Assembly: GCA_963710555.1 (NCBI GenBank)
Contig: CAVQAT010000003.1
Coordinates: 77,672 to 109,671, forward strand
Length of the DNA stretch: 32,000 nucleotides
Source of the DNA: an uncultured delta proteobacterium
Lineage (GTDB): Bacteria > Myxococcota_A > Polyangia > Polyangiales > Polyangiaceae
Direction of reading: 5' to 3'
Both the position numbers and the translations under genes were made by a program. Under the pieces are notes generated by a model, which saw only the letters and a list, made by a program, of their open reading frames with translations, ran no database searches and had not been told where the DNA came from. Positions 13,301 to 32,000 of the stretch are shown here, piece after piece (positions within the stretch are counted from its first letter, which is position 1; each line of letters opens with the position of its first letter).

Positions 13301-13351
13301 TTTTTTTGAGTGATGGGAACGACCTTGGTCGAGCACCAGACACCTTCCCCA

Positions 13352-13561: not shown

Positions 13562-13562
13562 A

Positions 13563-14667: not shown

Positions 14668-15866
14668 CGCACTTTCCCGCTTGCCCACTCACTCTTTGAT
14701 TGTGGCCGGCTATTCGGATCAATTGTTTGGGCTTAGCCCGCGCAGCGAGTTCGTTGCCGAGGGCGACGCTTTTTTGGAAGTGGGACTTTCGCGCGCGGGA
14801 GCAAGAATGATGAGCTGATCAACTTGGCTCACTTGCTCTGGGTGAGGGCTTCGCCCGCGTTTCCTGAACTGCGCCTCGCTGGTGGCAGCGCACGCTGGGA
14901 CGCCTGGATTGAATCGATGTTCCCTCGTCTCTTTCCGTCTGGTGTTCGCGCCTTTGTGATGGTCCGCCTTCAATCGCCTGGGCTCAGAGCTTCTTGGATG
15001 ACGTTCGCGCCCTCGTTGAGGTTTGAATTGCGTCGACTGTTGCTCGGATGGTCTCAAGACGCCCGCGCCATCTGGGTTTCTACAGCTTGTCGGTCAGCAA
15101 ATTGCTGCACCACTTTCGCCTCGCCGAGAGTTGCGGCCCTTCGGGCCGTTTCGGTGCTCTCGAAGCCAGCCTCTCCGAGGATTCTGGCGGGCGCGGGCTC
15201 GTGAATTTCGGGCGCTGAAGGGCGCTCAATGGAGATGGCGTGCTTTTTGAAGAGGCTTTCGACCTTCCCGTGAAGGCGTCATCGCGGGCGGATCGCCCAG
15301 CTGTCGTCAGAACCTGTTGTGCCAACTTTGCTCTGCAGTGAGTGCGGTTCACGGGCTGGTGAAGTCAGTGTGCGGCTGTCCTCGCGGAGCGGCGCTGTTT
15401 CATCGACTGGATGCGCGCTCTTTCCAGTCATCTTTTTATGCCAGGTGCACTGGCAAGATCACTGCCGTTTGCGCGGACTCGTTCTGGGCAAGCTCTTCTG
15501 AACTGATGAACTCGTGTCGCTCGTTGTCTTCGAACGGCCAGCGCGCTGGCAAATGATCACCGGCGCCTCAGACGCTTTTGCGAAGTCAGAACGGAAGCGT
15601 GAGTCGTCGGCCAACTGCCGTTTTGGCGCCTGCATCTAGCCGTTTGATTCCTGCTGAGCCCGGTGTGGTCTCACCTCCTCGCGCGCTGATGCCTCCTGAA
15701 ACTGAGGGAGTCGGTCTAACGAGCCGCTGCTACCTGACGGCGATCGTTAACGTTGTCGCTTCGCTGAAACTTGGCAGTTCGGCCGCCACCGGGCCTTGTC
15801 CCTTTTGTCGCGGCGGCCGTTCGGGGTAACCTGCGAGGCCTCGCGCCGCAGTAGAGCGGCAAGGCG
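14662..15866 (+). mobile_element. integron cassette L1 (1205 bp), ORF-less L family
   Basis: Bounded by the G|TT crossovers of attC-2 and attC-3. Paralogous to L2-L5. Track ORFs on both strands are not frame-conserved between copies. Confidence 0.75.
14885..15120. repeat. phased ~59-bp degenerate tandem units in L1
   Basis: Units start at 14885, 14944, 15003 and 15061. Each opens with G(C/T)(A/T/C)CGCGCC-like sequence followed by TCGTKGAGG / TGGATTG / CGATGT-like blocks. Confidence 0.7.
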
Positions 15867-15872
15867 TTAGAC
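15714..15872 (+). other. attC-3 (type A, 159 bp), R'' GTCTAAC, R' GTTAGAC
   Basis: GTCTAACGAGCCGCTGCTACCTGACGGCG...GCGCCGCAGTAGAGCGGCAAGGC GTTAGAC. Confidence 0.85.
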
Positions 15873-17072
15873 CGCACTTTCCCGCTTGCCCACTCACTCT
15901 TTGACTGTGGTCGACTATTCGGATCAATTGTTTGGGGTTAGCCCGCGCAGCAAGTTCGTTGCCGAGGGCGAGACGTTTTTGAGTGATGGACTTTCGCGCG
16001 CGGGAGCCAGAATGATGAGCTGACCGACTCGGCTCAGTTGCTCTTGGTGAGGGCTTCGCCCGCGTTTCTTAAACTGCGCCTCACTGGTGGCAGCGCACGC
16101 TGGAACGCCTGGATTGAGTCAATGTTTCCTCGTTTCTTTCCGTGTGATGTTCGCGCCTTCGTGGTGGTTCACCTTAGGTCGCCCAGGCTCAGAGCTTCTC
16201 GGGTGACATTCGCGCCCTCGTGGAGGTTTGAATTGCGTCGAGCGTTGCATGGGGTTCCCAAGACACCCGCGCCATCTGGGTTTCTACAGCTTGTCCATCA
16301 ACAAACTGCTGCGCCACTTTCGCCTAGCCGAGAGTTGCGGCCCAGCGGGCCGTTTCGGCTGTCTCGAAAGCAGCTGGGTCGATGATTCTGGCGGGCGCGG
16401 GCTCGTAATTTTCGGACGCTGAAGGGCGCTCGATGGAAAGGGCGTGCTTTTTGAACAGCCTTTCGACCTTTCCGTGAGTGCGCCATCGCGGGTCGAGGCG
16501 CCCCCGCTTTCTTCAGAATTGGTTGCGCCAACTTTGCTCTGCATGAAGTGCGGTTCGCGGGCTGATGAAGTCAGCGTGCGGCTGTCCTCGCGAAGCGGCG
16601 TTGTTTGTTCGACTGGATGCGCGCTCTTTTCAGTCTTCGTTTTATGCCAGGTGCACTCGCAAGATCACTGCCGTTTGCGCGGGCTCGTTCTGGGCAAGCT
16701 CTTCTGAACTGATGAACTCGTGTCGCCCGTTGTCTTCGAACGGCCAGCGCGCTGGCAAGTGATCACCGGCGCTTTAGACGCTTTCGCGAAGCAATCAGTT
16801 TGGCGTGGGCCGTCGGCCACCTCCCGATTTCGCGCCTGCAGCTAGCCAGCTGATTTCGGCTGAGCCCACCGTGGTCTCACCTCCTCGCGCGCTCATGCCT
16901 CCTGAAACTGATGGAGTCGGTCTAACGAGCCGCTGCTACCTGACGGCGGTCGTGAACGCTGTCGCTTCGCTGGAACTTGGCAGTTCGGCCGCCACCGGGC
17001 CTGGTCCCTTTTGTGGCGGCGGCCGTTCGGGGTAACCTGAAAGGCCTCGCGCCGCAGTAGAGCGGCAGGGCG
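15867..17072 (+). mobile_element. integron cassette L2 (1206 bp), ORF-less L family
   Basis: Same module order as L1. It has frameshifts relative to L1 in every candidate frame. Confidence 0.75.
16090..16320. repeat. phased ~59-bp degenerate tandem units in L2
   Basis: Units start at 16090, 16149, 16208 and 16265. Confidence 0.7.
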
Positions 17073-17078
17073 TTAGAC
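16920..17078 (+). other. attC-4 (type A, 159 bp), R'' GTCTAAC, R' GTTAGAC
   Basis: Same type A body as attC-3. Confidence 0.85.
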
Positions 17079-18275
17079 CGCACTGTCCCGCTTGCCCACT
17101 CACTCTTTGATTGTGGTCGGTTCATTAGATGACTTTGTTTGGGCTAAGCCCGCGCAGCAAGGTCACTGCCGATGTTAAACTGTTTTGAATGTGGTTGTTT
17201 CGCGCGCGAGAGTGAAAATGATGAGCTGTTCAACTTGACTCACTTGCTCTGGGTGAGGGCTTCGCCCGCGTTTCTTAAACTGCTCCTCGATGATGCCATC
17301 GCACGCAGGGACGCATGGATTGAGTCGAAGTCCCCTCGCCTTTTTTCGGTTGATGTTCGCGCCGTCGTGGTACTTCCGCTTCAGTCGTCCGGTCGCAGGG
17401 CTTCTCGGGTGACGTTCGCGCCCTCGTGAAGGTTCAAATTTCGTCGAGCGTTGCGTGTGGTTTTCAAGACGCCTGCGCCATATGGGTTTCTACAGCTTGT
17501 CGGTCAACAAACTGCTGCGCCACTTTCGCCTCGCCGGGAGTTGCGGCCCTTCGGGCCGTTTCGGTGCTCTCCAAGGTAGCCTCTCCGAGGATTCTGAAGA
17601 GCGCGGGCTCGTGAATTTCGGGCGCTGAAGGGCGCTCAATGGAGAGGGCGTACTTTTTAAACAGTCTTTCGACCTTTCCGTGAGTGCGTCATCGCGGGCG
17701 GAACGCCCAGCTTTCAGCAGAATCTGTTGCGCCAACATTGCTCTGCATGAAGCGCGGTTCGCGGGCTGGTGAAGTCAACGTGCGACGGTCCTCGCGAAGC
17801 GGCGTTGTTTCATCGACTGGATGCGCGCTCTTTTCAGTCTTCGTTTTCCGCCAGTTTCGCTGGCAAGATCACTGCCTTTGCGCGGGCTCGTTCTGGGCAA
17901 GCTCTTCTGAACTGCTGAATCTGTGGTGCTAGTTGTCTTCGAACGGCCAGCGCGCTGGCAAATGATCACCGGCGCCTCAGACGCTTTCGCGAAGGAGTAG
18001 ATTTGTGCTGAGTCGTCGGCCAACTGCCGCTTTGGCGCCTGCAGAAAGCCCTTTAATTCCTGCTGAGCCCGATGTGGTCTCACGTCCTCGCGCGCTGAGG
18101 CCTCCTAAAACTTTTGGAGTCGGTCTAACTAGCCGCTGCTACCTGGCGGCGGCCGCAAACGCTTTCGCTTCGCTGAGAGTTGGCAGTTCGGCCGCCACCG
18201 GGCTTTCTCCCTTTTGTGGCGGCGGCCGTTCGGTGTAACCTGCAAGACCTCGCGCCGCAGTAGAGCGGCAAGGCG
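17073..18275 (+). mobile_element. integron cassette L3 (1203 bp), ORF-less L family
   Basis: Same module order as L1 and L2. Confidence 0.75.
17295..17530. repeat. phased ~59-bp degenerate tandem units in L3
   Basis: Units start at 17295, 17355, 17414 and 17471. Confidence 0.7.
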
Positions 18276-18281
18276 TTGGGC
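18123..18281 (+). other. attC-5 (type A, 159 bp), R'' GTCTAAC, R' GTTGGGC
   Basis: GTCTAACTAGCCGCTGCTACCTGGCGGCGG...GCGCCGCAGTAGAGCGGCAAGGC GTTGGGC. Confidence 0.85.
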
Positions 18282-18677
18282 AGAGAGAGGGGCAATGAAT
18301 ACGGCAAAGGTTATCGTCGTTCACACTCTTTGTTTCGCACGGTGCAGCCTGTCCGTTTTGGCCTAAAGAGATGTTGACTCACCATTTGGGTCATTGTCAT
18401 CACCAACAAGGTCCATGTGTCGTAAGTCAGTCCCGGTGCTTGATATCCGAATCGCTACATTGACCACCTCAAGATGAGGTTCAAATCTTCCCCCCCTAAG
18501 TGGTCTCGATTCGCTTGTCGTTCAGACCAGGACCGGCTAACTCTCAAGACCATTTGCCTGGCAATCCCTCCATGGAGTCTGCGCTGACCCGACAGCGAAC
18601 TGCAACGAGACCGAAGATGTTCAGGTATTCCTCGGCCAACGTGGTTGAGTCCTTAGATGCTGAACTAGAAAACTCAA

Positions 18678-19736
18678 ATGATCAAAACCAACTTGAAGAC
18701 CGGAACGCTCGTAATTGCTGTGGGCGTTCTGCTTCTCGCCGTCGCGTGTGGCAACAACTCCGTCGACGACAATAATGTTGACACCACAGGCGGGCAATCC
18801 TCGGACAGTACGTCTTCAGGTGGAAGTTCCAATGGAGGACAGACCTCCGACGGCGGAGAATCGGCGAGCGGCGGCTCTAGTGGTGGGACGGAAGGAAACG
18901 GCACCGGTGGCAAATTCGGCATTGGAGGCGATTCTTCTTCCGGTGGACAGGCAACGGGCGGTGCCGTCGGTGACCAACCCATTGGTACGTTGGGTGAGCC
19001 TTGTTCATCGCCAGGTGTGTTTGCCTGCGCAGATGTGAATCCCAAACTCGCCCTCTTGTGCGGAAGTGATAAACGCTGGGAGGCGCGGGAGACTTGTGAT
19101 GGTGACGAGCTCTGCGATTCGAACGAAGGCCCCGCACTGGGAACGTGCCGCTCGCAGCTTCCGGAATGCCAAGCGGGCACCGCTAAGTTTTGTGATGGTG
19201 ACGCGCTAGTTGTGGAATGCGCCGAGGGTGGGTTCGATACGCAGGTCGTTGAAGAGTGCGGAAGCGGCTTTGGCTGCCGCGATGGCTTCTGTGTGGGAGT
19301 CGATGACCCGTGTCCGGAGGACGCTGTGCGCATCGAGAATTGCACAGATGAGGCTTGCGGCACCAAGTCACCTCCACGTTGCTTTTCTTCATTAGACTGT
19401 GACTACGTACATGCTGGCGTCTCCGTGTACCCCACCGGCCAAGTTGCCTTTCGGCTCCCCTTCGAAGACCTGTGTTCCTCGAGCTGTGGTCATGCTCGCT
19501 ATGCGGTGACCTTCAGTTCAGTTGAAGGAATGGCGGCAAAGGTAACAGTGGGCCCGGGTTGGGGAATGTCGACAGTCGGTCCTAGTGCGTGCGACGACAT
19601 CGTCGAAAAGTGCATTGTGCTTCCACCGAACCAAGTTGATGAGAGTTGGATTTTGTATCTGACGCTCCTTGCCCAGCATGCCGTAACTCGCAACCTGATG
19701 GTCGAAGCTGTTCCGCCGGGTACCACGTGCGACTGA
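18678..19736 (+). CDS. cysteine-rich lipoprotein with a G/S-rich linker (unknown function)
   Basis: 352 aa. The lipobox is LLLAVACGNN. About 90 aa of G/S/T-rich linker follow. The C-terminal domain has regularly spaced Cys residues (CSSPGVFAC...CGSDKRWEARETCDGDELC...CRSQLPEC...FCDGD...VEC...CGSGFGCRDGFC). Confidence 0.75.
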   Translation: MIKTNLKTGTLVIAVGVLLLAVACGNNSVDDNNVDTTGGQSSDSTSSGGSSNGGQTSDGGESASGGSSGGTEGNGTGGKFGIGGDSSSGGQATGGAVGDQPIGTLGEPCSSPGVFACADVNPKLALLCGSDKRWEARETCDGDELCDSNEGPALGTCRSQLPECQAGTAKFCDGDALVVECAEGGFDTQVVEECGSGFGCRDGFCVGVDDPCPEDAVRIENCTDEACGTKSPPRCFSSLDCDYVHAGVSVYPTGQVAFRLPFEDLCSSSCGHARYAVTFSSVEGMAAKVTVGPGWGMSTVGPSACDDIVEKCIVLPPNQVDESWILYLTLLAQHAVTRNLMVEAVPPGTTCD

Positions 19737-19856
19737 TATAGTATCGTGAGTGAACTTCACCGATATCGAGAGACTTCAGACCTTCTAGACGCATCTTGCT
19801 ATTCGATTGATGACGTTATCTCCGATAGCTCGAACGTTCACGACAACTAAGCTCCT

Positions 19857-20012
19857 GCCCAACAAGCAATTGGTGACCGACGGCCACTGTCCGGGTCCTC
19901 GCTTCGCTGGAAGGTTTGCGTTCGGCGCTCGCTCCTTCCCCTTTGGGGATGAGCGCCGGTTGTCGTATGCTGTTGAGGCCTCAGGCCGCGGCACAATTGC
20001 AGGGCGTTGTGC
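19857..20012 (+). other. attC-6 (divergent, 156 bp), R'' GCCCAAC, R' GTTGTGC
   Basis: The arm AAGCAATTGGTGACCGACGGCC pairs with GGCCGCGGCACAATTGCAGGGC. The central part has the same stem-like layout. Confidence 0.7.
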
Positions 20013-21428
20013 TGATCTGGCCCGCTTGCCCGTCGACTTTTTCCGTCAAAGTGCAGTTGCGTTCATTGTTTGGAAGACGGCCCGCGCACTTGGGGTTGTT
20101 CGAGTTCACAATGTTTTCTTGAGAGAGCTTTCGCGCGCGATGAGTTGGACTGGAAACTGTTCGAATTGGCTCGACAGCTCTGACTGTGGGCTTCGCCCCC
20201 TTTCTCAAATTGCTCCTCGTTTGTGCTCGCGCCCTCGTGAAAGCCTGGATTGCATCGATGTAACCTCGACTCTTTCCAGCTGACGCTCGCGCCCCCGTGG
20301 AGTTTTGGATTGCGGCGACCTGGTCTCAAACTGTTCCGGATAACGCCCGCGACCTCAGCACGGCTTGGATTGAATCGAAGTTATCTCGTGTTCGGTTGGC
20401 TGACGTCCACGCCCTCCACAAGCTTCATTTCGCGACCTGCTAAGAAGGCATCAAGACATTCCCGCTGTGCTCGATCCACGGGCTCGCCTCGCCCGAATCT
20501 CGGCCCACCTGCTCGCCTCGCCTGTTGCCGATTTCGCCCTATTCATTTTTTGAGTGCGAAGTCATGACGATGACTGCAATCGCGTCGCTCCGGCAACACG
20601 CTCCTGACTTTTCGGGCTTCGCCCTCATTCCGCAATCTGAATCCGCCTCTTCTGGCGCGGGTCGTGGCTAAGTAACCACCGTTAGCATTCTCAAAATCTA
20701 GAGGTCCCAAAGCGCGGGCTCGTGAACTCGGGCGCTAAACGGCGCTCAAGAACTGACGAGCAATTCACCTTTTCGGGAAGAGAACATCGCGGGGAAGTGA
20801 GCACGTGGATTGTTGAATTGTCACCATTTGAGGTCGGCTGATTTTCCGAAGTGAAAGTTCCCGCTCACCTCGGAGTCCTTGCGTCATTCGCATATTTTGG
20901 TTTGGCCTTTTTTTCGGGCTGATCATTCCAGCTTGAACAGCCTCTTGTTAGTCGATGTCTTTCCGACGACTGACTGCGCGCTCGTGGCAGCGGACTTCGA
21001 GCAAGGTGAGAACCTTGCCATGACCGGATCCATTGCGCGGTCCCTGATTAAGGCAAGCTCTGCTGAACAGCTGAACTCGTGGTGGTTCAACGTCTTCGAC
21101 CGGCGAGCGCGCTTGCAAAGGACGACTGGCGCCTTCCCCTGCTCTTTCATGCTCAACAACTTTCTCCAAGACCACAAAGTCATCACAGCCAAGGCGCCGA
21201 ATCCACGCCTCCTACTCGTTGCTGCACTCGTCGTGGGTCGTTTTCTCGCGCGCTTTTGCCTGCAGGCATCGACGGCCACCACAACGAGAAATTGCTGCTG
21301 ACTACTGAGAGGTTTTCGCTGCGACGCCGGGTTTTGGTGCGGCCGCCACCGGGCTTTATTCCTTTTGTGGCGGCGGCCGGTCGGTGTAAACTGGTCGAGG
21401 CCCTGCTGGGCAGCAGAATTTCAGGGCG
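20007..21428 (+). mobile_element. integron cassette S1 (1422 bp), ORF-less S family
   Basis: Starts TTGTGCTGATCTGGCCCGCTTGCCC and ends with a type B attC. Paralogous to S2-S4 and homologous module by module to the L family. Confidence 0.75.
20225..20464. repeat. exactly phased 60-bp degenerate tandem units in S1
   Basis: Units start at 20225, 20285, 20345 and 20405, an exact 60-nt register. Example unit: GCTCGCGCCCTCGTGAAAGCCTGGATTGCATCGATGTAACCTCGACTCTTTCCAGCTGAC. Confidence 0.8.
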
Positions 21429-21434
21429 TTAGAC
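21279..21434 (+). other. attC-7 (type B, 156 bp), R'' CCACAAC, R' GTTAGAC
   Basis: CCACAACGAGAAATTGCTGCTGACTACTGAGAGG...CTGCTGGGCAGCAGAATTTCAGGGC GTTAGAC. Confidence 0.85.
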
Positions 21435-22630
21435 CGCACTTTCCCCCTTGCCCACTCACTCTTTGATTGTGGCCGGTTCATTAGATGACTTTGTTTGGGC
21501 TAAGACCGCGCAGCTAGGTCGTTGCCAAAGGCGCACTGTTTTGGATGTGGTTCTTTTCGCGCGCAAGGGCGAGAATGGCGAGCTGTTCAACTTGGCTTAC
21601 CTGCTCTGGGTGAGGACTTCGCCCGCTTTTCTTGAGTTGCTCCTCGATGATGCCATCGCACGCTGGGACACCTGGAAAGAGTCGATGTTACCTCGTCTCT
21701 TTCCGTATGATGTTCGCGCCTTTGTGGTGGTTCGCCTTCAATCAGCCAGACTCAGAGCTTTTCGGGTGACGTTCGCGCCCTCGTTGAGGTTTGAATTGCG
21801 TCGACTGTTGCTCGGATGGTCTCCAGACGCCCGCGCCATCTGGGTTCTACAGCTTGTCGGTCAGCAAACTGCTGCACCACTTTCGCCTCGCCGAGAGTTG
21901 CGGCCCTTCGGGCCGTTTCGGTGCTCTCGAAGCCAGCCTCTCCGAGGATTCTGAAGAGCGCGTGCTCGTGAATTTCGGGCGCTGAAGGGCGCTCAATGGC
22001 AAGGGCGTGCTTTTTGAAGAGGGTCTCGACCTTTTCGTGAATGCGTCATCGCGGGCGGAGCGCCCAGCTTTCATCAGAATCAGTTGCGCCAACATTGCTG
22101 TGCATGAAGTGCGTTTCGCGGGCTGGTGAAGTCAGCGTGCGGCTGTCCTCGTAGAGCGACGTTGTTTCATCGCCTGGATGCGCGCTCTTTCAGTCTTCGT
22201 TTTCTGCCAGTTTCGCTGGCAAGATCACTGCCTTGCGCGGGCTCGTTCTGGGCAAGCTCTTCTGAACTGATCAGCGCGTGGTGCTTGTTGTCTTCGAACG
22301 GCCAGCGCGCTGGCAAATGATCACCGGCGCCCTATCCGTTTTCGCGAAGTCACAGCGTTATTCTGAGTCTTCGGCCAAACGCCGGTTTGGCGCCTGCAGC
22401 TAGCCAGCTGATTTCTGCTGAGCCCACCGTGGTCTCACTTCCTCGCGCGCTGATGCCTCCTGAAACTGATGGAGTCGGTCTAACGAGCCGCTGCTACCTG
22501 ACGGCGGTCGTGAACGCTGTCGCTTCGCTGAAACTTGGTAGTTCGGCCGCCACCGGGCCATGTCCCTTTCGTCGCGGCGGCCGTTCGGGGTAACCTGAAA
22601 GGCCTCGCGCCGCAGTAGAGCGGCAAGGCG
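21429..22630 (+). mobile_element. integron cassette L4 (1202 bp), ORF-less L family
   Basis: Same module order as L1-L3. It lies immediately upstream of the SEFIR/TIR cassette. Confidence 0.75.
21652..21888. repeat. phased ~59-bp degenerate tandem units in L4
   Basis: Units start at 21652, 21712, 21771 and 21829. Confidence 0.7.
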
Positions 22631-22636
22631 TTAGCT
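22478..22636 (+). other. attC-8 (type A, 159 bp), R'' GTCTAAC, R' GTTAGCT
   Basis: Type A body. The crossover G is at 22630. Confidence 0.85.
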
Positions 22637-22643
22637 AGACACC

Positions 22644-24083
22644 ATGACAGCACCAAAACTCTTCATTTCCTATTGCTGGTCATCTCCCGATCATGAGCAG
22701 CGTGTGCTCGACCTCGCTACCGAACTTCGAGAATCGGGAGTTGAAGCAATTCTCGACAAGTGGGACCTACGCGAAGGGCAGGATGCCCATGCATTCATGG
22801 AATCAATGGTCACCGACCCCACTGTCACGAAGGTACTTCTGGTTTGTGACCTCGCATACGTAGAGAAGGCAAACTCACGTGCCGGTGGAGTAGGTATCGA
22901 AACACAGATTCTCACGCCGGAACTCTACAAGACCGTGGATCAAACAAAGTTCGTTGCTCTGGTGCTTGAGCGCGACGAGAACGGCAAGCCTCTGGTTCCA
23001 GCCTACTACAGCTCGCGAATTCACATCGACTACTCGGAATCGGCGAAGCAATCTGACTCGTTCGATCAACTCCTACGCTGGGCTTTCGACAAACCGCTTC
23101 ATCAAAAACCCAAACTGGGTACGATGCCCGTGTTTCTGGCGGACAATTCCGCTCCAACGATTAGTACTACCGCCGCATTGCGACGAGTTGTGCATGCGTT
23201 ACGCGAGGGCAGAGGAAACTGGTCCGCGCTCTGTACCGAATACCTAGAGGTCTTCGCGACCCAAATGGAAAATTTCCGAGTATCGGACCCAGAAGAACCC
23301 CGAGATGAGCCCTTCATGTCGAACATTGAAGCCTTTACTCCGTATCGAAATGAGGTCATCAGTCTGCTCGACGAAGTTGCACTGCATAAATCAGGAAGCT
23401 CGCTCGCCGATCTGCTTCATGAATTCTTTGAACGGATCCTCGGGTACAACTTCCGACCTCCAGGGACTGGCTCGTGGCGCGAGACAGACTTCGACAACTT
23501 TCGCTTCATCACTCACGAATTATTCCTCCTTACAATAGCGCTACTCGTTCGGCGAGACCGATTTGAAGAGGTGTCGAACCTACTTGATCGCGAGTATTAC
23601 TGTCCGGTCCTTGCGGATATGGGAAAGACTGACGTGCTCACGTTTCGAGCATTCCGAGGAAACATTCAGCTGCTAGATCATCGTAACGAACGGCTCAACT
23701 TGCATCGATTATCCCTTCACGCAGACACTTTGAAGAGCCGATGCGTCGACATCCCCGTAACCTTCCAGCAAATGATGCAGGTCGACTTTCTCCTCTTTCT
23801 TCGCGGTGCTTCGGAACCATCAGGATGGGGATTTGGATGGTGGCCCGCCACACTGGTGTATGCATCCGATAGCTTCGCTTCCAGGTTCGAAGTGTTTGCA
23901 CGCTCAAGATCAAAAAACTACTTCAGCAAGATTGCCCCGCTCTTAGGGGTCAAATCACTCGAGCAATTCAAGGAGACTGTCGTGCGCTTCCAGTCAGGCG
24001 AACTGAAGGCTCCGAAATGGCAATTTGAGACCTTGAACGTCGCCGCCCTTTGCGGGCTCGATGAACTCGGAATCCGCAGTTGA
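22644..24083 (+). CDS. SEFIR/TIR-like (STIR superfamily) domain protein with a ~340-aa C-terminal domain of unknown function; candidate anti-phage effector
   Basis: 479 aa. The N-terminal ~135 aa read KLFISYCWSSPDHEQRVLDLATELRESGVEAILDKWDLREGQDAHAFMESMV...VLLVCDLAYVEKANSRAGGVGIETQIL...KFVALVLERD. This matches the FISYSH...H..WV..L...L...G..V.LD.W and GGVG-x-E pattern of bacterial SEFIR/TIR-like domains. It is a single-gene cassette, with the ATG 14 nt after the G|TT crossover. Confidence 0.8.
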   Translation: MTAPKLFISYCWSSPDHEQRVLDLATELRESGVEAILDKWDLREGQDAHAFMESMVTDPTVTKVLLVCDLAYVEKANSRAGGVGIETQILTPELYKTVDQTKFVALVLERDENGKPLVPAYYSSRIHIDYSESAKQSDSFDQLLRWAFDKPLHQKPKLGTMPVFLADNSAPTISTTAALRRVVHALREGRGNWSALCTEYLEVFATQMENFRVSDPEEPRDEPFMSNIEAFTPYRNEVISLLDEVALHKSGSSLADLLHEFFERILGYNFRPPGTGSWRETDFDNFRFITHELFLLTIALLVRRDRFEEVSNLLDREYYCPVLADMGKTDVLTFRAFRGNIQLLDHRNERLNLHRLSLHADTLKSRCVDIPVTFQQMMQVDFLLFLRGASEPSGWGFGWWPATLVYASDSFASRFEVFARSRSKNYFSKIAPLLGVKSLEQFKETVVRFQSGELKAPKWQFETLNVAALCGLDELGIRS

Positions 24084-24118
24084 ACGAGAATCGTGCCACA
24101 ACGTCATTCTGAATCGCT

Positions 24119-24277
24119 AGCTAACTGGCCATTGCTACCTGACGGCAGGCGTGAAGGTTTTCGCTTCGACACAAGCTCATCGTTCGGCCGCCACTGGGTT
24201 TTCTCCCTTTGGTCGTGGCGGCCGGTCGGTGTATTCTGAAAGGCACAGCGCCGCAGTAGAATGGCAGGGCGTTAGAC
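24119..24277 (+). other. attC-9 (type A variant, 159 bp), R'' AGCTAAC, R' GTTAGAC
   Basis: GCTAACTGGCCATTGCTACCTGACGGCAGGCGT...GCGCCGCAGTAGAATGGCAGGGC GTTAGAC. Confidence 0.8.
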
Positions 24278-25583
24278 TGATCTGCCCCGCTTGCCCGCTA
24301 ACTTTTGATCGTCAGGGTTTGAGTTGATCATTCGTTTCATAGGCAGCCCGCGCAGCTGAGGTCGGTCGATCTCGCAATGTTTTCGTGAGGAAACTTTCGC
24401 GTGCGATCAGTTTGATTCAAAGCTGTGCAACTTCGCTCGATTGGTCTCGAATGGGAAGTCGCCCGTTTTCGTGATTGCTCATCGTTTGAGTCCGCGCCGG
24501 TCTCAGGAGCCCGACTTTGTCGTTGTACAATCGATGCGCCCAGCTGACGCCCGCGCCCAGCGAGCGTGGCATTGTCGCCGGGTTCCGACAACTTTCGTCT
24601 GATGCCCGCGCCGTCATGGAGCGTATTGGTTGGGTGGACTTGAGGGTTGCCTCGGGCCAGCAGACAGTTGCTGAGAGCACGAACGCTTCGATTTTCTTTC
24701 TTGTTTTGGTCGCCGTGAAGCCGAGTTGGTTGGCGTCGCCCTTCAGATTTGTAGCGGTGCAGGTTCAAAGGCAGGGACTGTTGTCTCTCGGCGCAGACGA
24801 CGGGCTCCTCTCGAAAGCGGGTTCGGTCCCTTCTGGCGCGGGCCAGCGGATTTCGGCGGCGCGGGCTCTTTGACTTGGGCGCTGAACGTCGCTCAATCAC
24901 CAACATGTTGTCGGCTTTTCGTGATCAGATCATCGCGAGGAAATGGGTTCGTGGATTGCTTCCGGTTTGCCAGTTTTTGGTGGTTGTTTTTTTCGAATTG
25001 ATGGTTCCCCGCTTCTGTCGCAAGCATCGATTTCACTTCTGTTTTTGTTTGGCCCAATTCACGGGCTTAGCTTGGTCAGCGTCCACTGCATCTCGCTGAT
25101 CGTCGGCGTCTCGCTGAATTGGCGTCGCGCTTTTGGTTGTTCACTGTTTCCTGAATAATGCTTTGCCGAACTGATCAAGGTCCGCGCGAGCTCTTGATTC
25201 GGGCAAGCTCTGCTGAACAGTTGAACTCGTGAGGGCAAAATGTCTTCGGCCGGCGTGCGCGCTTGCGAATGATCAGCGGCGCCTTCCCCTTCCCCGCGTC
25301 GGACCACTCACGTGCCAGATGTTTCGTGAAATAATCAGCTTGGCGCCTATTCCGTGCCTCCTGCTCGTCCCTTCACTCATCGTGGAAAGCTTTGTTGCGC
25401 GCAATGGCCTCCAGAAAAACTGATACGACAGTCTAACGAGCCGCTTCTACCTGACGGCGGTCGTGTAGGCTTTCGCTTCGCTGCAGCTTGGCAGTTCGGC
25501 CGCCACCGGGCTTTCTCCCTTTTGTGGCGGCGGCCGTTCGGGGTAACCTGAAACGCACAGCGCCGCAGTAGAGCGGCAAGGCG
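24272..25583 (+). mobile_element. integron cassette S2 (1312 bp), divergent ORF-less S-family member with a type A attC
   Basis: The leader is TTAGACTGATCTGCCCCGCTTGCCC. It has the same module order (CG palindrome region, phased units, GGCGCT-N4-GTCGCT, GGCAAGCTCTGCTGAACAGTTGAACTCGTG block) but is more diverged. Confidence 0.65.
24490..24660. repeat. phased ~55-59-bp degenerate tandem units in S2
   Basis: Units start at 24490, 24549 and 24604 (GTCCGCGCCGG..., GCCCGCGCCCAGCG..., GCCCGCGCCGTCATGGAG...). Confidence 0.6.
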
Positions 25584-25589
25584 TTGTGC
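25431..25589 (+). other. attC-10 (type A, 159 bp), R'' GTCTAAC, R' GTTGTGC
   Basis: Type A body. The crossover G is at 25583. Confidence 0.85.
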
Positions 25590-26923
25590 TGAGCTGGCCC
25601 GCTTGCCCCTCATCCTTTGACTGTGAAGGTTCGCTTGAACGATTTGTTAAGGAGGTGGCCCGCGCATTCGGATTCTTCCGAGGTCGCCATGTTTTCTTGG
25701 GAGAGTTTTCGCGCGCGATGAGTTCTACCCAAAAACTGTTTGTCTTGCCTGGACTGCTCTGAATGTGGGCTTCGCCCGCGTTCTTAAGTTGCTCCTCGTT
25801 TGTGCTCGCGCCCTCGTGGAGGCCTGGATTGTGTCAATGTAATCTCGTCTCTGTCCGGCTGACGCCCGCGCCCTCGTGGAGATGTGGATTGCGGCGATGT
25901 CGTCCCGACTCTTTTCGATTGACGCCCGCGCCCGCATCGCGCGTTTGGATTGAGTAGATGTAACTTTCAGGACGTCCCCGCCCTCTTTGAGTCTACATCT
26001 TGTCGTTCAAGCACATTGTGGCAGCTGGTTCCCTCGGCTAGTTGCTGCTTCCTGTAAGCGTTGGGTCGGTTTTTGGAATACTGCTGAAACAAATGTTTCT
26101 GCCGCCTCGAAACGCTTCTTTCGGCTGAGAAATCGCTGTTTATGTCGCGGACCGCGTACAAGTTAACGCCGTTAACTTGCTCAAAGGCTTGAGAATTCGA
26201 AAGCGCGGGCTCGGGACTCGGGCGCTGAGTGGCGCTCAAGGACCGATGAGCGTTTCACCTTTTCGTGAAGAGAGCCGCACGGGGACGTGAACTCGATGAT
26301 TGTGGAAGAGTCACCGTCGGAGTGACAGGTTTCTCCGAAGTGGAAGCCCCCGCTCATTGCGAAGGCGTTTGCAGGGTCGACTTCTTTTGTTTGGCCTGTT
26401 TCGCGGCCTGCCTTTTGCCAGCTTGAACAGCCTCTTGTCAGCCGACACCATTTCGAGGACTGATTGCGCGCTCTTGCGTCGCTTCTTTTGATCACGGCGA
26501 GGCTTTTGCCAAGACGGGTCCCCTTCTGCGCGGGCCCTTGAATTTGGGCAAGCTCTGCTGAACAGTTGAACTCGTGGTGGCTCAACGTCTTCGACCGGCG
26601 AGCGCGCTTGCAAAGGACGACTGGCGCCTTGCCCTGCTCTTTCATGCTCAACAACTTTTTCCGTGACCACAAAGTCATCACAGTCAAGGCGCCGAATCCA
26701 CGCCTCTTGCTCGTTGCTGCGCCCGTCGCAGGTCGTTTCCTCGCGCGCTTTTGCCTGCAGGCATCGACGGCCACCACAACGAGAAATTGCTGCTGACTAC
26801 TGAAAGGTTTTCGCTGCGACGCCGGCTTGTGGTGCGGCCGCCACCGGGCTTTATCCCTTTTGTCGCGGCGGCCGGTCGGTGTAAACTGGTCCAGGCCCTG
26901 CTGGGCAGCAGAATTTCAGGGCG
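25584..26923 (+). mobile_element. integron cassette S3 (1340 bp), ORF-less S family
   Basis: Paralog of S1 and S4. It has a 4-nt length difference relative to S1 inside the best candidate frame. Confidence 0.75.
25804..26020. repeat. phased 60-bp degenerate tandem units in S3
   Basis: Units start at 25804, 25864, 25924 and 25974. Units 1 and 2 share GC(T/C)CGCGCCCTCGTGGAG. Confidence 0.8.
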
Positions 26924-26929
26924 TTGTGC
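26774..26929 (+). other. attC-11 (type B, 156 bp), R'' CCACAAC, R' GTTGTGC
   Basis: Near-identical to attC-7 apart from the R' core tail. Confidence 0.85.
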
Positions 26930-28109
26930 TGAGCTGGCCCGCTTGCCCGTCGACGTTTTCCGTGAGGGTTTGTCGCGATCATTTGTTTAAGGGACGGCCC
27001 GCGCATTCGGGGTTGTTCGAGTTCGCAACGTTTTCTTGAGAGAGATTTCGCGCGCAATGAGTCCGACCAGAAACTTCTCAAGTTAGCTCACCTGCTCTGC
27101 ATGAGGGCTTCGCCCGCGTTCTTAAGTTGCTCCTCGTTTGTGCTCGCGCCCTCGTGAAAGCCTGGATTGTGTCGATGTAAGCTCGACCTTCCCGGCTGAC
27201 GACGCGCCCTCGTGGAGACTTTGCTCGCGGCGATGAAGTTCCAAATCTTTCCGGGTGACGCCCGCGCCTGCAGCACGATTTGAATTGTTTTCGGGTGGCT
27301 CTCAAGACTTCCGCGCCACCTTTGGTTCTACTTCTTGTCGTTGCACCAAGTTGCGACAACTGTCTAGCTCGGCTTATTGCTGCTTATTGCCGACGTGGGT
27401 TCGAATTCTGGAACGCTGCAGGGACGATGATTCTTTGCCGCCTCGAAAGTCTTCGTTCGATCATCAAATTATCGTTTCCGGCGCGAACGCGTCAAAGTCT
27501 TCATCGTTCACATCTTCGAAATCTTGAAGGGTCAAAAGCGCTGGCTCGCATACTCGGGCGCTAGATGGCGCTCAAGAACTGACAAGCGATTCACCTTTTC
27601 GTGGAGAGAGCATCGCGGGAAAGTGAGCACGTGGATTGTTGAATTGTCATCCTTTTGGATTCGTTCGTTCTCCAGAATGAAACCTCCCGCTCGTGTCGAC
27701 CGTGTTGCGACATCAGTAATTTTTTGTTTGGCATTTTCGCGGGCTGTTCATTCCAACTTGAACAGCCTCTTGTCAGCCGAAGTCTTTCCGAGACTGATCG
27801 CGCGCTCGTGACAGCGGACTTTGAGCAAGGTGAGAACTTTGCCATGACCGAATCCATTGCGCGGTCCCTGATTGAGGCAAGCTCTGCTGAACAGCTGAAC
27901 TCGTTTTGGTTCAACGTCTTCGACCGGCGAGCGCGCTTGCAAAGGACGAGCGGCGCCTTCCCCTGGTCTTTCCTGAGCAACAACTTTGTTCGACATCGCA
28001 AAGTCATCACAGCGAGGCGCCTAATCCACGCCTCTTGCTCGTTGCTGCACTCGTCGTGGGGCGTTCTCTCTCGCGCTTTGGCCTACAGGTATCGACGGCC
28101 ACCACAACG
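26924..28109 (+). mobile_element. integron cassette S4, ORF-less S family; its attC is interrupted by the IS91-like element (remainder at 30670-30816)
   Basis: Colinear with S1 and S3 up to CGACGGCCACCACAACG (ending 28109). Homology then resumes at 30670 (CAACGAGAAATTGCTGCTGAC...). Confidence 0.75.
27142..27365. repeat. phased ~59-bp degenerate tandem units in S4
   Basis: Units start at 27142, 27201, 27260 and about 27309. Confidence 0.7.
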
Positions 28110-28433
28110 GAATAGGGTTTTCGCGGTGACGGGGGTAAGGGAGCTCGCGACCGTCCGCCGGCCAGCGCTAAAACCTCTGTTGAACAACCCGCCTTCAGCT
28201 ACGCGTGAGTAGAGAAGCCACTTGGTGATTTGCTTTCATTTGTGACTCACTGGTGAGCGCTAGCGAGCGGCCCCCAAGCGCAGGTTGCGATCCTACGGAG
28301 CTGTTCTTGAGCAATAACTGACCGGTGAGAGGGGCTCGACGGTTGAAATCTCGCGACACGACCGACGCGACGCGCACGGGTGCATTCACGCACGTTACGC
28401 GCGTCCGAATGGAGTCGCTCCCCGCAGGCTTGT

Positions 28434-29633
28434 TCATGCGACTCTCCCAATGGTCAAGGTCTCCGTCCGTGGTGGCCCTCGCGCTTTCGCAAGTCCGGGC
28501 TCGCCCGCGCGGTTCGTCATGGCTTCGGCCCATGCACCACATTCAGCAGCGTCTAAGCGGCGACCGATCGCCAGAGATAACATTCCGCATGCTGGGCAGC
28601 GAGCTAGTTGAGGAGTTTGGTTTTCCGGCCGCGAGTCCTTCACGGCTTCTTGCGTCTGGCGTGAGCGGCTCAGCAGCAGTTGCAAACGCTGCAGTTTACT
28701 TCTGTGCTGGGGATGCAAAAGCCCGAAGCTCCGCACCCGGTGAAAGCCCTTGGGCGGCACGTGCTGAAGAAAACGTCTCAAGAATTCATTTACCGGCAGA
28801 GTCATCTGCTTGCGCTCGTGAGTACGACTGTCCGTGTAGCGGAAGGTGACCCTGTGCTCATCTGAAGCTAACACCGCGTGATTGCCAATGGCCGTCTTGT
28901 GCACGTAGCGACCTAGATATTCGATCACCTTCTCGGCTCCCTGCACGACGGGCTTGGCAAAAGTGATCCAAGGCTTATTTGCTGGCACCGACGGCATTTC
29001 TCCTTTGGGCAAGGCCTTGCGCGCGAGCGCCATGAAGCGCCCACGAAACTTCTTGGACAGCGCAGGAACGGGGACCAAGTAGCGTTTCTTTCGGCGAGGT
29101 GCTGTGAGCCACGTCTCTCCATCCGCGGCGACGCCTCCTCCGGGCACGAGCATGTGTACGTGCGGGTGCCACTCCAGAGTGCGCGTCCACGTGTGCAGCA
29201 CTGCGAGGGCGCCGATGAGCTGAGCGCCCAAGAAGTGTGGGTCTTGGCAAAGCTCGGCCAGCGACTCATAGGCGGCTCGAAACAAGACTGGCAGCAGCAC
29301 CGTCTGCTTGGAGCGCACCACGTCGCGCAGCTCGCTTGGCAGCGTGAAGACGACGTGAAAGTACGGCACGGGAAGCAATAGCTCGCGCTGACGCTCAATC
29401 CATTGAGTCGTTCGCAAAGTGCCGCACTGAGGGCAAGCCCGATGGCGGCACGAATGGTAGAGCAAGTGCTGCGAGTCACAGCTCTCACAATGCGCGAGGT
29501 GTCCACCTAGCGCTGAAGTGCGACAAACGCTGATTTTTCCGATTGCTCGCACATGACTTGGCAGCACGGCGTCACCGTAACGCTCCAGATAGGCTGGACC
29601 ATGCTGCCTCACCACTTCGGCGAGGAGACTCAT
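28434..29633 (-). CDS. tnpA: IS91-family rolling-circle (HUH, Y2) transposase
   Basis: 399 aa. The N-terminal zinc-binding region is HCESCDSQHLLYHSCRHRACPQCG. The HUH motif is WHPHVHMLVPGG. The C-terminal tyrosine motif is YLGRYVHKTAI. Confidence 0.9.
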   Translation of the reverse strand: MSLLAEVVRQHGPAYLERYGDAVLPSHVRAIGKISVCRTSALGGHLAHCESCDSQHLLYHSCRHRACPQCGTLRTTQWIERQRELLLPVPYFHVVFTLPSELRDVVRSKQTVLLPVLFRAAYESLAELCQDPHFLGAQLIGALAVLHTWTRTLEWHPHVHMLVPGGGVAADGETWLTAPRRKKRYLVPVPALSKKFRGRFMALARKALPKGEMPSVPANKPWITFAKPVVQGAEKVIEYLGRYVHKTAIGNHAVLASDEHRVTFRYTDSRTHERKQMTLPVNEFLRRFLQHVPPKGFHRVRSFGLLHPQHRSKLQRLQLLLSRSRQTQEAVKDSRPENQTPQLARCPACGMLSLAIGRRLDAAECGAWAEAMTNRAGEPGLAKARGPPRTETLTIGRVA

Positions 29634-29643
29634 GGCGCGGCCG

Positions 29644-30531
29644 CTAGAGCTTGGCCATCAGCCGATCGAGGGTCGCCAGGAGCCTCTCATCGTTTTCGTG
29701 CGTCACATGCAAGTACACGCTTGTGGTCTTCAAGCTGCGATGCCCAAGCACTCGCTGAATTGTCTTCAGCGTGATCCCGGCTTCAAGCAGATGAGTCGCA
29801 TAGCTATGCCGCAAGGTATGAATTGAAGCGCGCTTCTCTACGTGTTGTTCCTCCAGCACGGCGCTAAATGTTTTCTGTAGTGAGGTTCGATCTACGCTGC
29901 CACCCTTTGCCCCGCCGACGAAGAGCAGAGGACCCTTCGATGCTTGACGGTCCTGCTTCCAGAAGCGCCGCAGCTTGTGAAGTAGCGGTCGCGGGAGAGG
30001 CACCATTCGATCTTTTGCTCCCTTCGCATCGCGCACCAACACAATCAGACGGTCGCTGTCTATGTCTCGCGATTCGAGCCTGAGGCCTTCGCCAAGGCGC
30101 AAACCAAGCGCGTAGATTGTCTGAAGCGCCATCCGACGCGTAGGCTCGCGGACTGCACCAAGCACGCGATGGGTCTCTTCCACGCTCAAGACCACGGGTA
30201 GCTTCTGGGCGATCTTCACGCGCACAAAATCCAGAACTGACCACTCTTGAGGGCACGTGTAGGTGAAGAAGAAACGCAGCCCGTGGACCGCGACGTTGCG
30301 CGTCGAAGAAGCAAGCATTCGCTCATCGCGCAAATAGATGAGGTATGCGCGAACATCGTCCTCTGTCAGAAGGTAGGGCTCTTTCTTCACGTGTTCCAAA
30401 AATTGACGAACTACCCGCCTGTAGGAGTCCTGCGTCTTGGGGCGAAAGTCTCGCAGCCGCATGTCCTCGCTGAGTCGGCCTTGAACGTTTGCTAAAGTGA
30501 TCATCATCATCTCCATGAAAAGCGACGACAC
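29644..30531 (-). CDS. tyrosine recombinase (phage-integrase family) co-transcribed with the IS91-family transposase
   Basis: 295 aa with an N-terminal SAM-like core-binding domain (TQDSYRRVVRQFLEHV). The catalytic blocks are GLRLGEGLRLESRDID, HTLRHSYATHLLEAGITLKTIQRVLGHRSLKTTSVYLHV. It lacks the IntI-specific insertion. Confidence 0.9.
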   Translation of the reverse strand: MSSLFMEMMMITLANVQGRLSEDMRLRDFRPKTQDSYRRVVRQFLEHVKKEPYLLTEDDVRAYLIYLRDERMLASSTRNVAVHGLRFFFTYTCPQEWSVLDFVRVKIAQKLPVVLSVEETHRVLGAVREPTRRMALQTIYALGLRLGEGLRLESRDIDSDRLIVLVRDAKGAKDRMVPLPRPLLHKLRRFWKQDRQASKGPLLFVGGAKGGSVDRTSLQKTFSAVLEEQHVEKRASIHTLRHSYATHLLEAGITLKTIQRVLGHRSLKTTSVYLHVTHENDERLLATLDRLMAKL

Positions 30532-30669
30532 CGCGCCGCCGCCTATGGAAAGCGTGAATCACTGAGCGCAGTGGCACTCCTCAGAGTCATGAGCAGCTTC
30601 GTGGCAGGCTCAAGATGAACTAAACGGACGCAATGAGCCCAAAGCTACCGTGCGCAGCGCGGTTTCGTT

Positions 30670-30822
30670 CAACGAGAAATTGCTGCTGACTGCTGAAAGG
30701 TTTTCGCTGCGACGATACGTTGGCGTGCGGCCGCCACCGGGCTTTATCCCTTTTGTGGCGGCGGCCGGTCGGTGTAAACTGGTCGAGGTCCTGCTGGGCA
30801 GCAGAATTTCAGGGCGTTAGAC
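30670..30822 (+). other. attC-12 (type B), right-hand remainder after the IS insertion; R' GTTAGAC
   Basis: CAACGAGAAATTGCTGCTGACTGCTGAAAGG...CTGCTGGGCAGCAGAATTTCAGGGC GTTAGAC. The R'' core CCACAAC is displaced to 28102-28108. Confidence 0.85.
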
Positions 30823-31039
30823 CGCACTGTTCCGCTTGCCCACTCACTCTTTGATTGTGTTCGGTTCATTAGATGACTTTGTTTGGGCTAAGCCCGCGCA
30901 GCAAGGTCACTGCCGATGTCGAAGTGTTTTGAATGTGGTTGTTTCGCGCGCGAGAGCGAAAATGATGAGCTGTTCAACTTGACTCACTTGCTCTGGGTGA
31001 GGGCTTCGCCCGCGTTTCTTGAACTGCCCCTCGCTTGTG

Positions 31040-31275
31040 GCCGCGCACGCCGAGAAAATTCAGATTAAGTCGATGTCCCCTCGCCTCTCTCCGGTTGATG
31101 TTCGCGCCGTCGTGGTAATTCGGGTTCAGTCGTCCGGTCGCAGGGCTTCTCGGGTGACGTTCGCGCCCTCGTGGAGGTTTGAATCTCGTCGAGCGTTACG
31201 TGTGGTTCTCAAGACGCCCGCGCCTCTCAGATTTCTACAACTTTTCTAACAGTGAGTTGAGCAACGGCCATCCCG
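31040..31275. repeat. phased ~59-bp degenerate tandem units in L5
   Basis: Units start at 31040, 31100, 31159 and 31216. Confidence 0.7.
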
Positions 31276-31288
31276 CTGCTGATAGTTG

Positions 31289-31309
31289 CAGCCCTGCGGG
31301 CTTGTTTTT
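31289..31309 (+). terminator. hairpin plus T5 run inside cassette L5 (intrinsic-terminator-like)
   Basis: CAGCCC-TGC-GGGCT(T)G is followed by TTTTT. It is homologous to the CGGCCC-TTC-GGGCCG hairpin of L1-L4, with a compensatory G:C to A:T change. Confidence 0.4.
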
Positions 31310-31926: not shown

Positions 31927-32000
31927 GTCTAACTAGCCGCTGCTACCTGGCGGCAGTCGTCAAGGCTTTCGCTTCGCTGAAAGTTGGCAGTTCGGCCGCC
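31927..32000 (+). other. attC-13 (type A), 5' part only; truncated by the window end
   Basis: GTCTAACTAGCCGCTGCTACCTGGCGGCAGTCGT...TTCGGCCGCC matches the 5' half of attC-5. Confidence 0.8.

Follow-up and report, generated by a model that had tools for sequence, protein, structure and literature searches.

A probable SEFIR anti-phage defence gene carried as a stand-alone cassette in the chromosomal integron of an uncultured bacterium

Background

The closest described counterpart of the gene considered here is the bacterial SEFIR (bSEFIR) system, in which a single protein, encoded by Bacillus sp. NIO-1130 and expressed as one gene in a heterologous host, protects B. subtilis against phage phi29 (preprint of Millman et al. 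2022). In the same work the substitution D40A, at a predicted SEFIR-SEFIR contact, abolished defence, and the family was reported from 460 genomes in more than 20 phyla, with an enrichment in defence islands. The literature on the Bacillus homolog assigns its effect to the N-terminal SEFIR domain, which depletes nicotinamide adenine dinucleotide (NAD+) to give ADP-ribose and nicotinamide, and the preprint of Osterman et al. describes how phage NARP1 rebuilds NAD+ from these two products and overcomes SEFIR defence. A role in protein interaction has also been proposed for bacterial SEFIR domains, by Yang et al. (2018). Here we describe a gene of this family in a window of 32,000 nucleotides (the term denotes the whole stretch of DNA analysed) from contig CAVQAT010000003.1 of an uncultured bacterium assigned to the Polyangiaceae (assembly GCA_963710555.1, positions 77,672 to 109,671), where it lies at 22644..24083 on the + strand and occupies an integron cassette of its own.

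Integrons have been described as carriers of defence genes. The preprints of Darracq et al. (2024) and Kieffer et al. (2024) report single-gene defence systems placed between two attC sites of chromosomal integrons, and according to the former, integron cassettes are enriched in known defence systems. Counts of such systems have reached 783, 73% of them in Vibrio. In the preprint of Darracq et al., cassettes act once they have been moved beside a promoter, and a cassette at the first position confers protection. SEFIR is not named among the integron-borne systems in the available portions of the text and supplement of that defence-cassette work.

The explanation that we consider best overall, with a probability of roughly 0.8, is that the window holds a canonical bSEFIR single-protein defence gene, borne by a chromosomal integron as a cassette without a promoter. 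A reading made from the letters of the window alone (hereafter the sequence-only reading) had anticipated much of this, proposing a 479-amino-acid SEFIR/TIR-like protein with a GGVGIE motif, assignable to anti-phage defence and encoded alone in an integron cassette. Both proposals are borne out, the first by the open reading frame (ORF), its Pfam TIR_2 and SEFIR matches and its alignment with a solved SEFIR domain, and the second by a bSEFIR match, a TIGR02249 integrase and the attC sites.

A full-length member of the SEFIR family

The ORF at 22644..24083 (stop codon included) encodes 479 amino acids, and its protein begins MTAPKLFISYCW and carries GGVGIE at residues 81-86 as well as SGWGFGWWPATLVY. 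Its N-terminus fits the family consensus MxxPKLFISY, which indicates that the start codon is correct. Public records and NCBIfam leave the gene unnamed (an NCBIfam search gave no match to the protein), and the immediate gain in annotation is thus from an unnamed gene to a full-length SEFIR defence gene. The sequence-only reading had suggested PADLOC as a check, and the bSEFIR model of that database (PDLC03957) matches at E 5.9e-105 with 350.4 bits, residues 1-475 of the protein aligning with profile positions 35-382 of 412. When the protein is divided, 272 bits fall to its SEFIR half and 67 bits (E 5.3e-19) to its C-terminal half against the same profile, which gives 352 and 305 bits for Bacillus plasmid proteins and 410 and 399 bits for members from Vibrio and from a Desulfuromonadaceae metagenome-assembled genome (MAG).

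Homologs number more than 1600; the best 120 are all of full-length coverage, measure about 470-505 amino acids and are 45-59% identical to the protein, apart from one at 81%. Among GTDB species representatives there are 501 homolog loci, from many bacterial phyla and some archaea. A search with the 5y8e sequence (a solved bacterial SEFIR domain) as query yielded 16 short proteins of 89-264 amino acids, and full-length Bacillus members were obtained through tblastn of plasmids, in which proteins of B. velezensis, B. mycoides and B. wiedmannii match ours across residues ~4-450. The homology extends to the C-terminal part, which is 27-28% identical to the B. velezensis and B. mycoides plasmid proteins over 271-281 columns (E 2e-27 and 7e-28), and plasmid proteins of E. 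coli and Enterococcus have the SEFIR domain alone in common with ours (residues 4-162). Homologs occur in 165 plasmid records, 23 of them at >=80% coverage.

By the sequence-level tests that we ran, with one mixed result in the comparison of SEFIR and TIR matches given below, the protein classifies as a full-length, canonical member of the single-gene anti-phage SEFIR system. With the bSEFIR system of Bacillus sp. NIO-1130 it has in common an N-terminal SEFIR domain followed by a helical C-terminal domain of ~310 amino acids, a total length of ~475 amino acids and the single-gene organisation. The LD(K/R)W segment also keeps its Asp, and the GGVGxE loop is conserved, in the Bacillus proteins compared. 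The differences lie in the carrier, an integron cassette rather than a defence island or plasmid; in the host, an uncultured diderm; and in sequence, the overall identity being 33-35% to the Bacillus plasmid members compared. Genomic evidence is also consistent with a system of one gene, given that the cassette contains a single family-supported ORF and that the neighbourhoods of homologs are unrelated to one another, without a recurrent partner. The sequence-only reading had proposed a survey of these neighbourhoods for enrichment in defence islands. Some homologs do adjoin other defence-like genes, such as the AAA_15/AAA_21 ATPase at locus L090; in the array of the window, no defence family was matched by the 10 other ORFs searched.

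The N-terminal SEFIR domain, which has a TIR fold, comprises residues ~1-160 (22644..23123, + strand). Pfam TIR_2 matches residues 7-144 (46.6 bits, cut-off 28), Pfam SEFIR matches residues 5-121 (42.1 bits, cut-off 23), and 5y8e aligns with residues 4-157 at E 4.5e-33. In a Foldseek search with the full-length model, whose matches are confined to the N-terminal part, 5y8e is recovered at E 9.4e-9 (TMt 0.85-0.89, 43-44% identity), and the next neighbours are the TIR/SEFIR domains of SPARTA, SARM1 and ACT1/IL-17R; the probability reaches 1.0 against the TIR domains of SPARTA, SARM1, MyD88 and TLR, and a TIR fold is present. The crystals 5y8e and 5y8f represent BcSEFIR of B. cereus F65185 (Yang et al. 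2018), which resembles the N-terminal domain in both sequence and fold and differs in that the SEFIR domain was solved alone, without a C-terminal domain. The TIR enzymes that hydrolyse NAD+ (NADases), namely SPARTA TIR-APAZ, SARM1 and AbTir, likewise have the fold in common with our protein (Foldseek E 3e-3 to 3e-2), as well as a Pfam TIR_2 match above the cut-off, but their sequence similarity to the SEFIR domain is marginal, that of AbTIR standing at E 0.9 with an alignment up to residue ~59 only. Millman et al. selected family members by requiring a SEFIR match stronger than the TIR match (HHsearch against PDB and Pfam). In our case SEFIR is clearly ahead of TIR in the PDB comparison (E 4.5e-33 for 5y8e, or 2.7e-45 with a profile, versus 0.5-1 for the best TIR) and in Foldseek (9.4e-9 versus 3e-3), whereas by hmmscan against Pfam alone it is TIR_2 that leads, by a small margin (46.6 versus 42.1 bits).

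Conservation within this domain is concentrated in two loops. The invariant D38 (codon 22755-22757) sits in a segment that resembles a BB loop; within the motif LDKWD it is kept in 120 of 120 homologs, in BcSEFIR (as LDRW) and in the Bacillus plasmid proteins, and judging from its position it would be the counterpart of D40 in the validated protein. The second is the invariant loop G82-V83-G84-x-E86, in which E86 (codon 22899-22901) is unchanged in all 120 homologs and in the Bacillus proteins. We regard E86 as a plausible candidate for the catalytic residue. Every residue that is invariant in the family is present in the protein. Furthermore, the only SEFIR-domain loops in which the predicted local distance difference test (pLDDT) falls below 50 are residues 42-46 (22767-22781) and residues 83-86 (22890-22901), such that the most conserved loops of the domain (with E44 and G45 in the former, and G82-V83-G84-x-E86 around the latter) are also the least confident in the monomer model. 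This would be expected if these loops became ordered only upon oligomerisation or substrate binding. A linker of low confidence (residues 156-167, 23109..23144, + strand, pLDDT <50) lies between the two domains, and the predicted template modelling score (pTM) of the full-length model is 0.66, versus 0.93 for the C-terminal domain modelled alone.

The gene is intact and under purifying selection, with a dN/dS of 0.15 in comparison with the 81%-identical homolog (locus L089). Two phage records also contain full-length SEFIR homologs of ~30% identity and >90% coverage, one in Clostridium phage D-1873 (ACSJ01000017.1, 2810-4183) and one in Klebsiella phage ST15-OXA48phi14.1 (NC_049454.1, 9305-10603). 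Consequently, given such homologs in phage or prophage genomes, the system travels on phages too.

A cassette that moves as a unit

The cassette that contains the gene occupies 22631..24271 on the + strand and measures 1641 bp, made up of a 13-nt leader, the gene, a 35-nt spacer and the attC. Its own attC lies at 24119..24277 (+ strand; R'' AGCTAAC at 24119-24125, R' GTTAGAC at 24271-24277; nhmmer E 1.7e-45), and that of the ORF-less cassette directly upstream at 22478..22636 (+ strand; R'' GTCTAAC at 22478-22484, R' GTTAGCT at 22630-22636; nhmmer E 9.7e-49). The gene is therefore flanked by two attC repeat copies of ~160 nt at a spacing of 1641 nt. Crossover falls within G|TTAGCT (22630|22631) and G|TTAGAC (24271|24272), and the upstream attC and the SEFIR cassette overlap by 6 nt, the last of the former being the first of the latter. 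The sequence-only reading had set the cassette at 22631-24277; its start and its length of 1641 bp stand, whereas the end is 24271, the last 6 nt of the proposed interval belonging to the next cassette. The distance that it gave for the start codon, 14 nt after the crossover, agrees with an ATG that begins at the 14th nucleotide of the cassette.

Two observations argue for a genuine cassette and against a gene placed by chance between two repeats. Firstly, the cassette start TTAGCT (22631-22636) complements the R'' of its own attC (AGCTAA, 24119-24124), whereas the attC upstream has GTCTAAC as its R''. The cassette that follows behaves likewise, its TTAGAC complementing its own R'' GTCTAAC at ~25431. 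Secondly, in the 81%-identical homolog, which comes from a different metagenome sample, similarity to the window begins exactly at the crossover, G|TTAGCTAGACACC-ATG, with an ungapped identity of 0.28-0.30 to the left of this point and of 0.86-0.95 to its right. That locus has also conserved the R'' box together with the attC arm next to it, and its upstream neighbour is an unrelated ORF of 360 amino acids. The notion that this neighbour has its equivalent in the array of the window was rejected, since it is unrelated to the 352-amino-acid ORF found there. The SEFIR cassette is thus real and moves as a unit. Moreover, an alignment of its attC with seven others of the array has a mean column identity of 81%, this attC, folded on its bottom strand, forms a single long, imperfect hairpin in which R'' is paired with R' (z-score -2.3), and the short-read assembly of the same organism is broken at both attCs, leaving a piece of 1625 nt.

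In being a single-gene system between two attCs of a chromosomal integron, the locus is like the defence cassettes of Darracq et al. and Kieffer et al.; it differs from them in that its protein is not 'streamlined' (479 amino acids, versus ~478 in homologs outside integrons) and in that its host is not a Vibrio. A cassette constitutes a natural minimal functional unit, here of a 13-nt leader, an ORF and an attC, and consequently lends support to single-gene autonomy. With a size of ~1.6 kb, the unit would be self-contained in full and could pass between phyla.

The C-terminal domain

Residues 168-479 (23145..24080, + strand) form a SEFIR-associated domain of ~310 amino acids, which AlphaFold2, from an alignment of 120 sequences, models as all-helical with high confidence (pLDDT 93.9, pTM 0.93). 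The sequence-only reading had described this portion, taken as ~340 amino acids, as apparently helical and assignable to no family, and it was right on both counts. Pfam gives no match to residues 168-479 even at E<=10, and a profile search of PDB sequences gives none to the domain. Foldseek with the domain alone returns nothing significant from the PDB (best E 0.06, best template modelling score 0.33) or from the viral models of BFVD (best E 0.11), and our literature search found no paper on a SEFIR-associated C-terminal domain. The structural search that had been advised thus produced no housekeeping match and no significant neighbour in either database by which the domain could be named.

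The suggestion of the sequence-only reading that the domain might amount to a new variant is not supported. Searched for exhaustively with HMMER, the domain by itself is present in at least 1471 cluster representatives at 50% identity, and among the 150 of these that were listed, whose N-termini we classed with local hidden Markov models of both domains, 106 carry a SEFIR domain or its remnant at a truncated N-terminus, 43 are too short to be judged and 1 has another N-terminus. Its conservation equals that of the SEFIR domain. As the bSEFIR profile spans residues 1-475, and the Bacillus proteins have a homologous C-terminal part and equal bSEFIR scores, the architecture is canonical, and on this comparative evidence we take the C-terminal half to be the second domain typical of the family. 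The single deviating representative among the 150 listed, P0304 (649 amino acids, metagenomic), carries the domain after a ParA/AAA_31-like N-terminus instead of SEFIR, and could result either from an uncommon exchange of effectors or from an artefact of gene fusion. With this as the sole case lacking SEFIR among the listed representatives whose N-terminus can be read, we reject the idea of a sensor module shuffled among many effectors.

The positions kept through to Bacillus are E263, D/E284, H291, E292, R347, N348, R355, D381 and W399-x-P401-x-T403, which offer direct targets for mutagenesis, and WWPETLLY, corresponding to a Trp-rich segment pointed out in the sequence-only reading, proves to be a motif of the family. 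It is conceivable, if rather unlikely, that the domain is a fold without a solved or predicted viral counterpart whose polar cluster is catalytic or binds a small molecule, instead of acting as a passive sensor of a phage protein. If this were so, SEFIR proteins would be fusions of two activities, or sensors of a phage-induced metabolite. Because the domain is confidently modelled, widespread, paired with SEFIR in every listed representative of legible N-terminus save one, and without a neighbour in structure or family space, phage sensing by SEFIR becomes a question for the whole family. At the locus itself, both the defence gene and the type of carrier are of known kinds, and the fold class, ligand and role of the C-terminal domain are family-level matters rather than properties of this locus.

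Mode of action, expression and alternatives

Under the mechanism that we propose, the helical C-terminal domain would, by way of the flexible linker, keep the SEFIR domain inactive in the uninfected cell. A cue derived from the phage would then be bound at a polar site of the C-terminal domain (E263, D284, H291/E292, R347/N348, R355, D381 and W399-P401-T403), and its recognition would lead to SEFIR-SEFIR assembly through the BB-loop-like segment (D38, W40, E44, G45). Assembly may order the GGVGxE loop into an NADase site in which E86 is the likely catalytic residue, and the resulting collapse of NAD+ would abort the infection. At the level of the array, integrase-mediated shuffling of the cassette into the neighbourhood of attI and its promoter Pc would deploy the gene. 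Activation by assembly is favoured by the oligomerising TIR NADases SPARTA and SARM1, and by the helical assembly of ACT1/IL-17R, all of which are among the structural neighbours of the N-terminal domain, and by analogy with these it is plausible that activation by oligomerisation is a principle common to SEFIR and TIR NADases. The logic would also be that of DSR1 and DSR2, in which a single polypeptide with an N-terminal NADase is triggered by C-terminal detection of phage and is countered by NARP1. The resemblance ends there, for the NADase of DSR1 and DSR2 is a SIR2 domain rather than one of SEFIR/TIR fold, and our protein is much smaller and has an unrelated C-terminal domain.

Several points weigh against a canonical defence gene acting in this manner. 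A sensor role for the C-terminal domain is something that we infer, and its invariant acidic and His residues would be no less fitting for an enzyme. The protein for which defence was demonstrated comes from Bacillus, and the Bacillus relatives compared are 33-35% identical overall to ours. Alignment by profile to AbTIR and other TIRs breaks off near residue 60-66, short of E86. By Pfam, with hmmscan rather than HHsearch, TIR_2 scores slightly above SEFIR. PADLOC matched no defence family in 10 other ORFs of the array. Lastly, with no promoter-like site within 1.3 kb upstream and a distance of ~11.6 kb from intI, the gene may be unexpressed.

The last of these points leads to the alternative that survives best, and one that is compatible with our preferred explanation, namely that the cassette is banked: functional in principle, but unexpressed here until it becomes attI-proximal. 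The cassette is at least ninth in the array and ~11.6 kb from intI, and the cassette directly upstream is ORF-less. A scan of 21300-24500 found 0 sigma70-like promoter sites versus 1.2 expected, though it was made with the sigma70 consensus alone, which may not be that of the host. No Shine-Dalgarno (SD) motif was found upstream of the SEFIR ATG, an absence that carries no weight given that an SD-like motif precedes merely 2 of the 12 gene starts listed from the window. The sequence-only reading had noted the lack of both a visible SD and a promoter, as well as the ORF-less cassette immediately 5', and all of this is confirmed, except that the missing SD is nothing special. Conversely, the dN/dS of 0.15 shows that the cassette lineage sees enough use to have been kept, and transcription reading through the array could still reach the gene. 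We consider that the gene is probably a stored cassette, weakly expressed or silent at its present position, which fits the promoter-proximal action pictured in the preprint of Darracq et al.; complete silence until relocation is, in our estimation, a little short of an even chance.

A second alternative would reverse the roles of the two domains, the C-terminal domain being itself an enzyme, whether a second effector or the real one, and the SEFIR domain acting mainly as a module for assembly or signalling, as in IL-17R/ACT1. The polar set that is conserved to Bacillus is compatible with such a role, animal SEFIR domains are adaptors, ACT1/IL-17R assembly figures among the structural neighbours, and the protein-interaction proposal of Yang et al. 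points in the same direction. However, the literature assigns NAD+ depletion to the SEFIR domain and NARP1 cancels the defence, the GGVGxE loop is invariant, and the Pfam, PDB and BFVD searches show no likeness of the C-terminal domain to any known enzyme fold or family. We therefore hold this alternative to be improbable, and continue to prefer an NADase formed by the SEFIR domain under the control of the C-terminal one.

Some bacterial TIR domains are generators of signals, for example ThsB of Thoeris, and the TIR-type fold of the SEFIR domain makes it conceivable that this domain also produces a signalling nucleotide, with an unlinked effector elsewhere in the genome. Against this, one gene suffices for the system to function in a heterologous host, its described effect is the depletion of NAD+, the neighbourhoods of homologs are without a conserved partner gene, and integron cassettes are inherently units that stand alone, so that we accord the idea very little probability. 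The notion that the gene serves no defence in its host, being a decaying passenger or a toxic element that stabilises the array, accords with a foreign origin (GC content of 52.1%, below the window average of 56.8%) and with an array rich in apparently non-coding repeated cassettes, but is scarcely tenable for an intact frame that keeps all family-invariant residues, evolves at the dN/dS given above and has no antitoxin-like partner ORF within its cassette.

Integron capture of SEFIR genes in other lineages

We surveyed integron context at 80 homolog loci from species representatives, using flanking-repeat BLAST with mismatched-pair controls. Flanking direct repeats exceeded the control ceiling at 3 of the 80 loci, one in a Nitrospira MAG (L078) and two in Vibrio (L008 and L011). 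In the Desulfuromonadaceae MAG mentioned above (L021), another of the 80 loci, an integron integrase lies 2.4-2.9 kb upstream of the SEFIR gene (TIGR02249, 357.8 bits) and is followed by small ORFs on the same strand. In V. cholerae (L002, GCA_028909135.1) the SEFIR gene is placed between VCR-type repeats at 3498-3620 and 5071-5171, and in V. chanodichtyis (L011) the homolog at 5936-7614 is also bracketed by VCR-type repeats; these Vibrio cassettes measure ~1.55-1.58 kb and reside in chromosomal integrons. Additionally, a single cluster at 90% identity is common to V. cholerae, V. parahaemolyticus, V. vulnificus, V. diabolicus and Photobacterium.

Integron capture of SEFIR is thus recurrent yet concerns a minority of loci, roughly 5% (about 4 of 80). 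SEFIR joins the known defence systems that have been captured by integrons, with independent captures in Vibrio, Nitrospira, Desulfuromonadaceae and the uncultured bacterium studied here.

The integron array and neighbouring genes

The integron integrase IntI is encoded at 9964..10986 on the - strand, divergent from the array, and is recognised by TIGR02249 (430.8 bits, cut-off 265) as well as by Pfam Phage_integrase and SAM_4. The cassette array extends over 12619..32000 (+ strand) and includes 12 attCs and a partial one at 31927-32000. Their crossover G residues are at 12770, 14661, 15866, 17072, 18275, 20006, 21428, 22630, 24271, 25583, 26923 and 30816. A pattern for the 3' end of the attC finds the 12 sites, all on the + strand, versus 0 in 100 shuffles, and nhmmer, given a profile made from eight of these sites, recovers the same 12 and the partial thirteenth at the end of the window. 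Two other attC finders, one based on boxes plus a stem and one on boxes plus a minimum-free-energy fold, were discarded, having recovered respectively 0 and 2 of the 12 sites in the window, the latter with false matches.

Five cassettes of ~1.2 kb (14662-15866, 15867-17072, 17073-18275, 21429-22630 and 30817-~31990) are paralogs of 79-88% identity, three of them tandem neighbours. They have no ORF in common, their substitutions are without codon periodicity, and Rfam gives no match. The cassette at 21429-22630, directly upstream of the SEFIR cassette, is one of these, and as a source of a partner protein or of a known RNA it was rejected for want of a conserved ORF and of an Rfam match. A second repeated family comprises the cassettes at 20007-21428, 25584-26923 and 26924-~28013, which have long segments in common, with up to 94% identity over 300 nt (repeat families D16, D18, D19 and D20). 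The two repeated families therefore make up most of the array.

One cassette ORF, at 18678-19736 (+ strand), encodes 352 amino acids with an N-terminal region rich in Ser, Gly, Asn and Asp and with many Cys further on, and has no match in Pfam, NCBIfam or PADLOC. The PADLOC search of the 10 other ORFs also led us to reject the array as a defence island. Between intI and the first detectable attC (12619-12776) lie a GrpB gene (11515-12087) and a gene resembling glyoxalase/bleomycin-resistance proteins (12149-12613), with no attC between the two; the pair is either a two-gene first cassette or one that has lost an attC. The genes of the surrounding backbone include those for an outer-membrane protein of the alginate-export type, a DTW protein, an ImuB-like polymerase, an acyltransferase, a LysR and a DJ-1 protein, a set that points to a diderm host. 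The few named relatives of the outer-membrane protein belong to Polyangiaceae or Myxococcales MAGs, at 39-50% identity, and give a weak hint of the lineage. Towards the end of the window, the unusually long interval of 3893 bp between the attCs at 26923 and 30816 contains an IS91-type Y2 transposase (28434-29633, - strand) adjoined by a tyrosine recombinase (29644-30531, - strand; TIGR02249 187 bits, below the cut-off of 265), and 28434-30531 looks like a mobile element that was inserted into a cassette.

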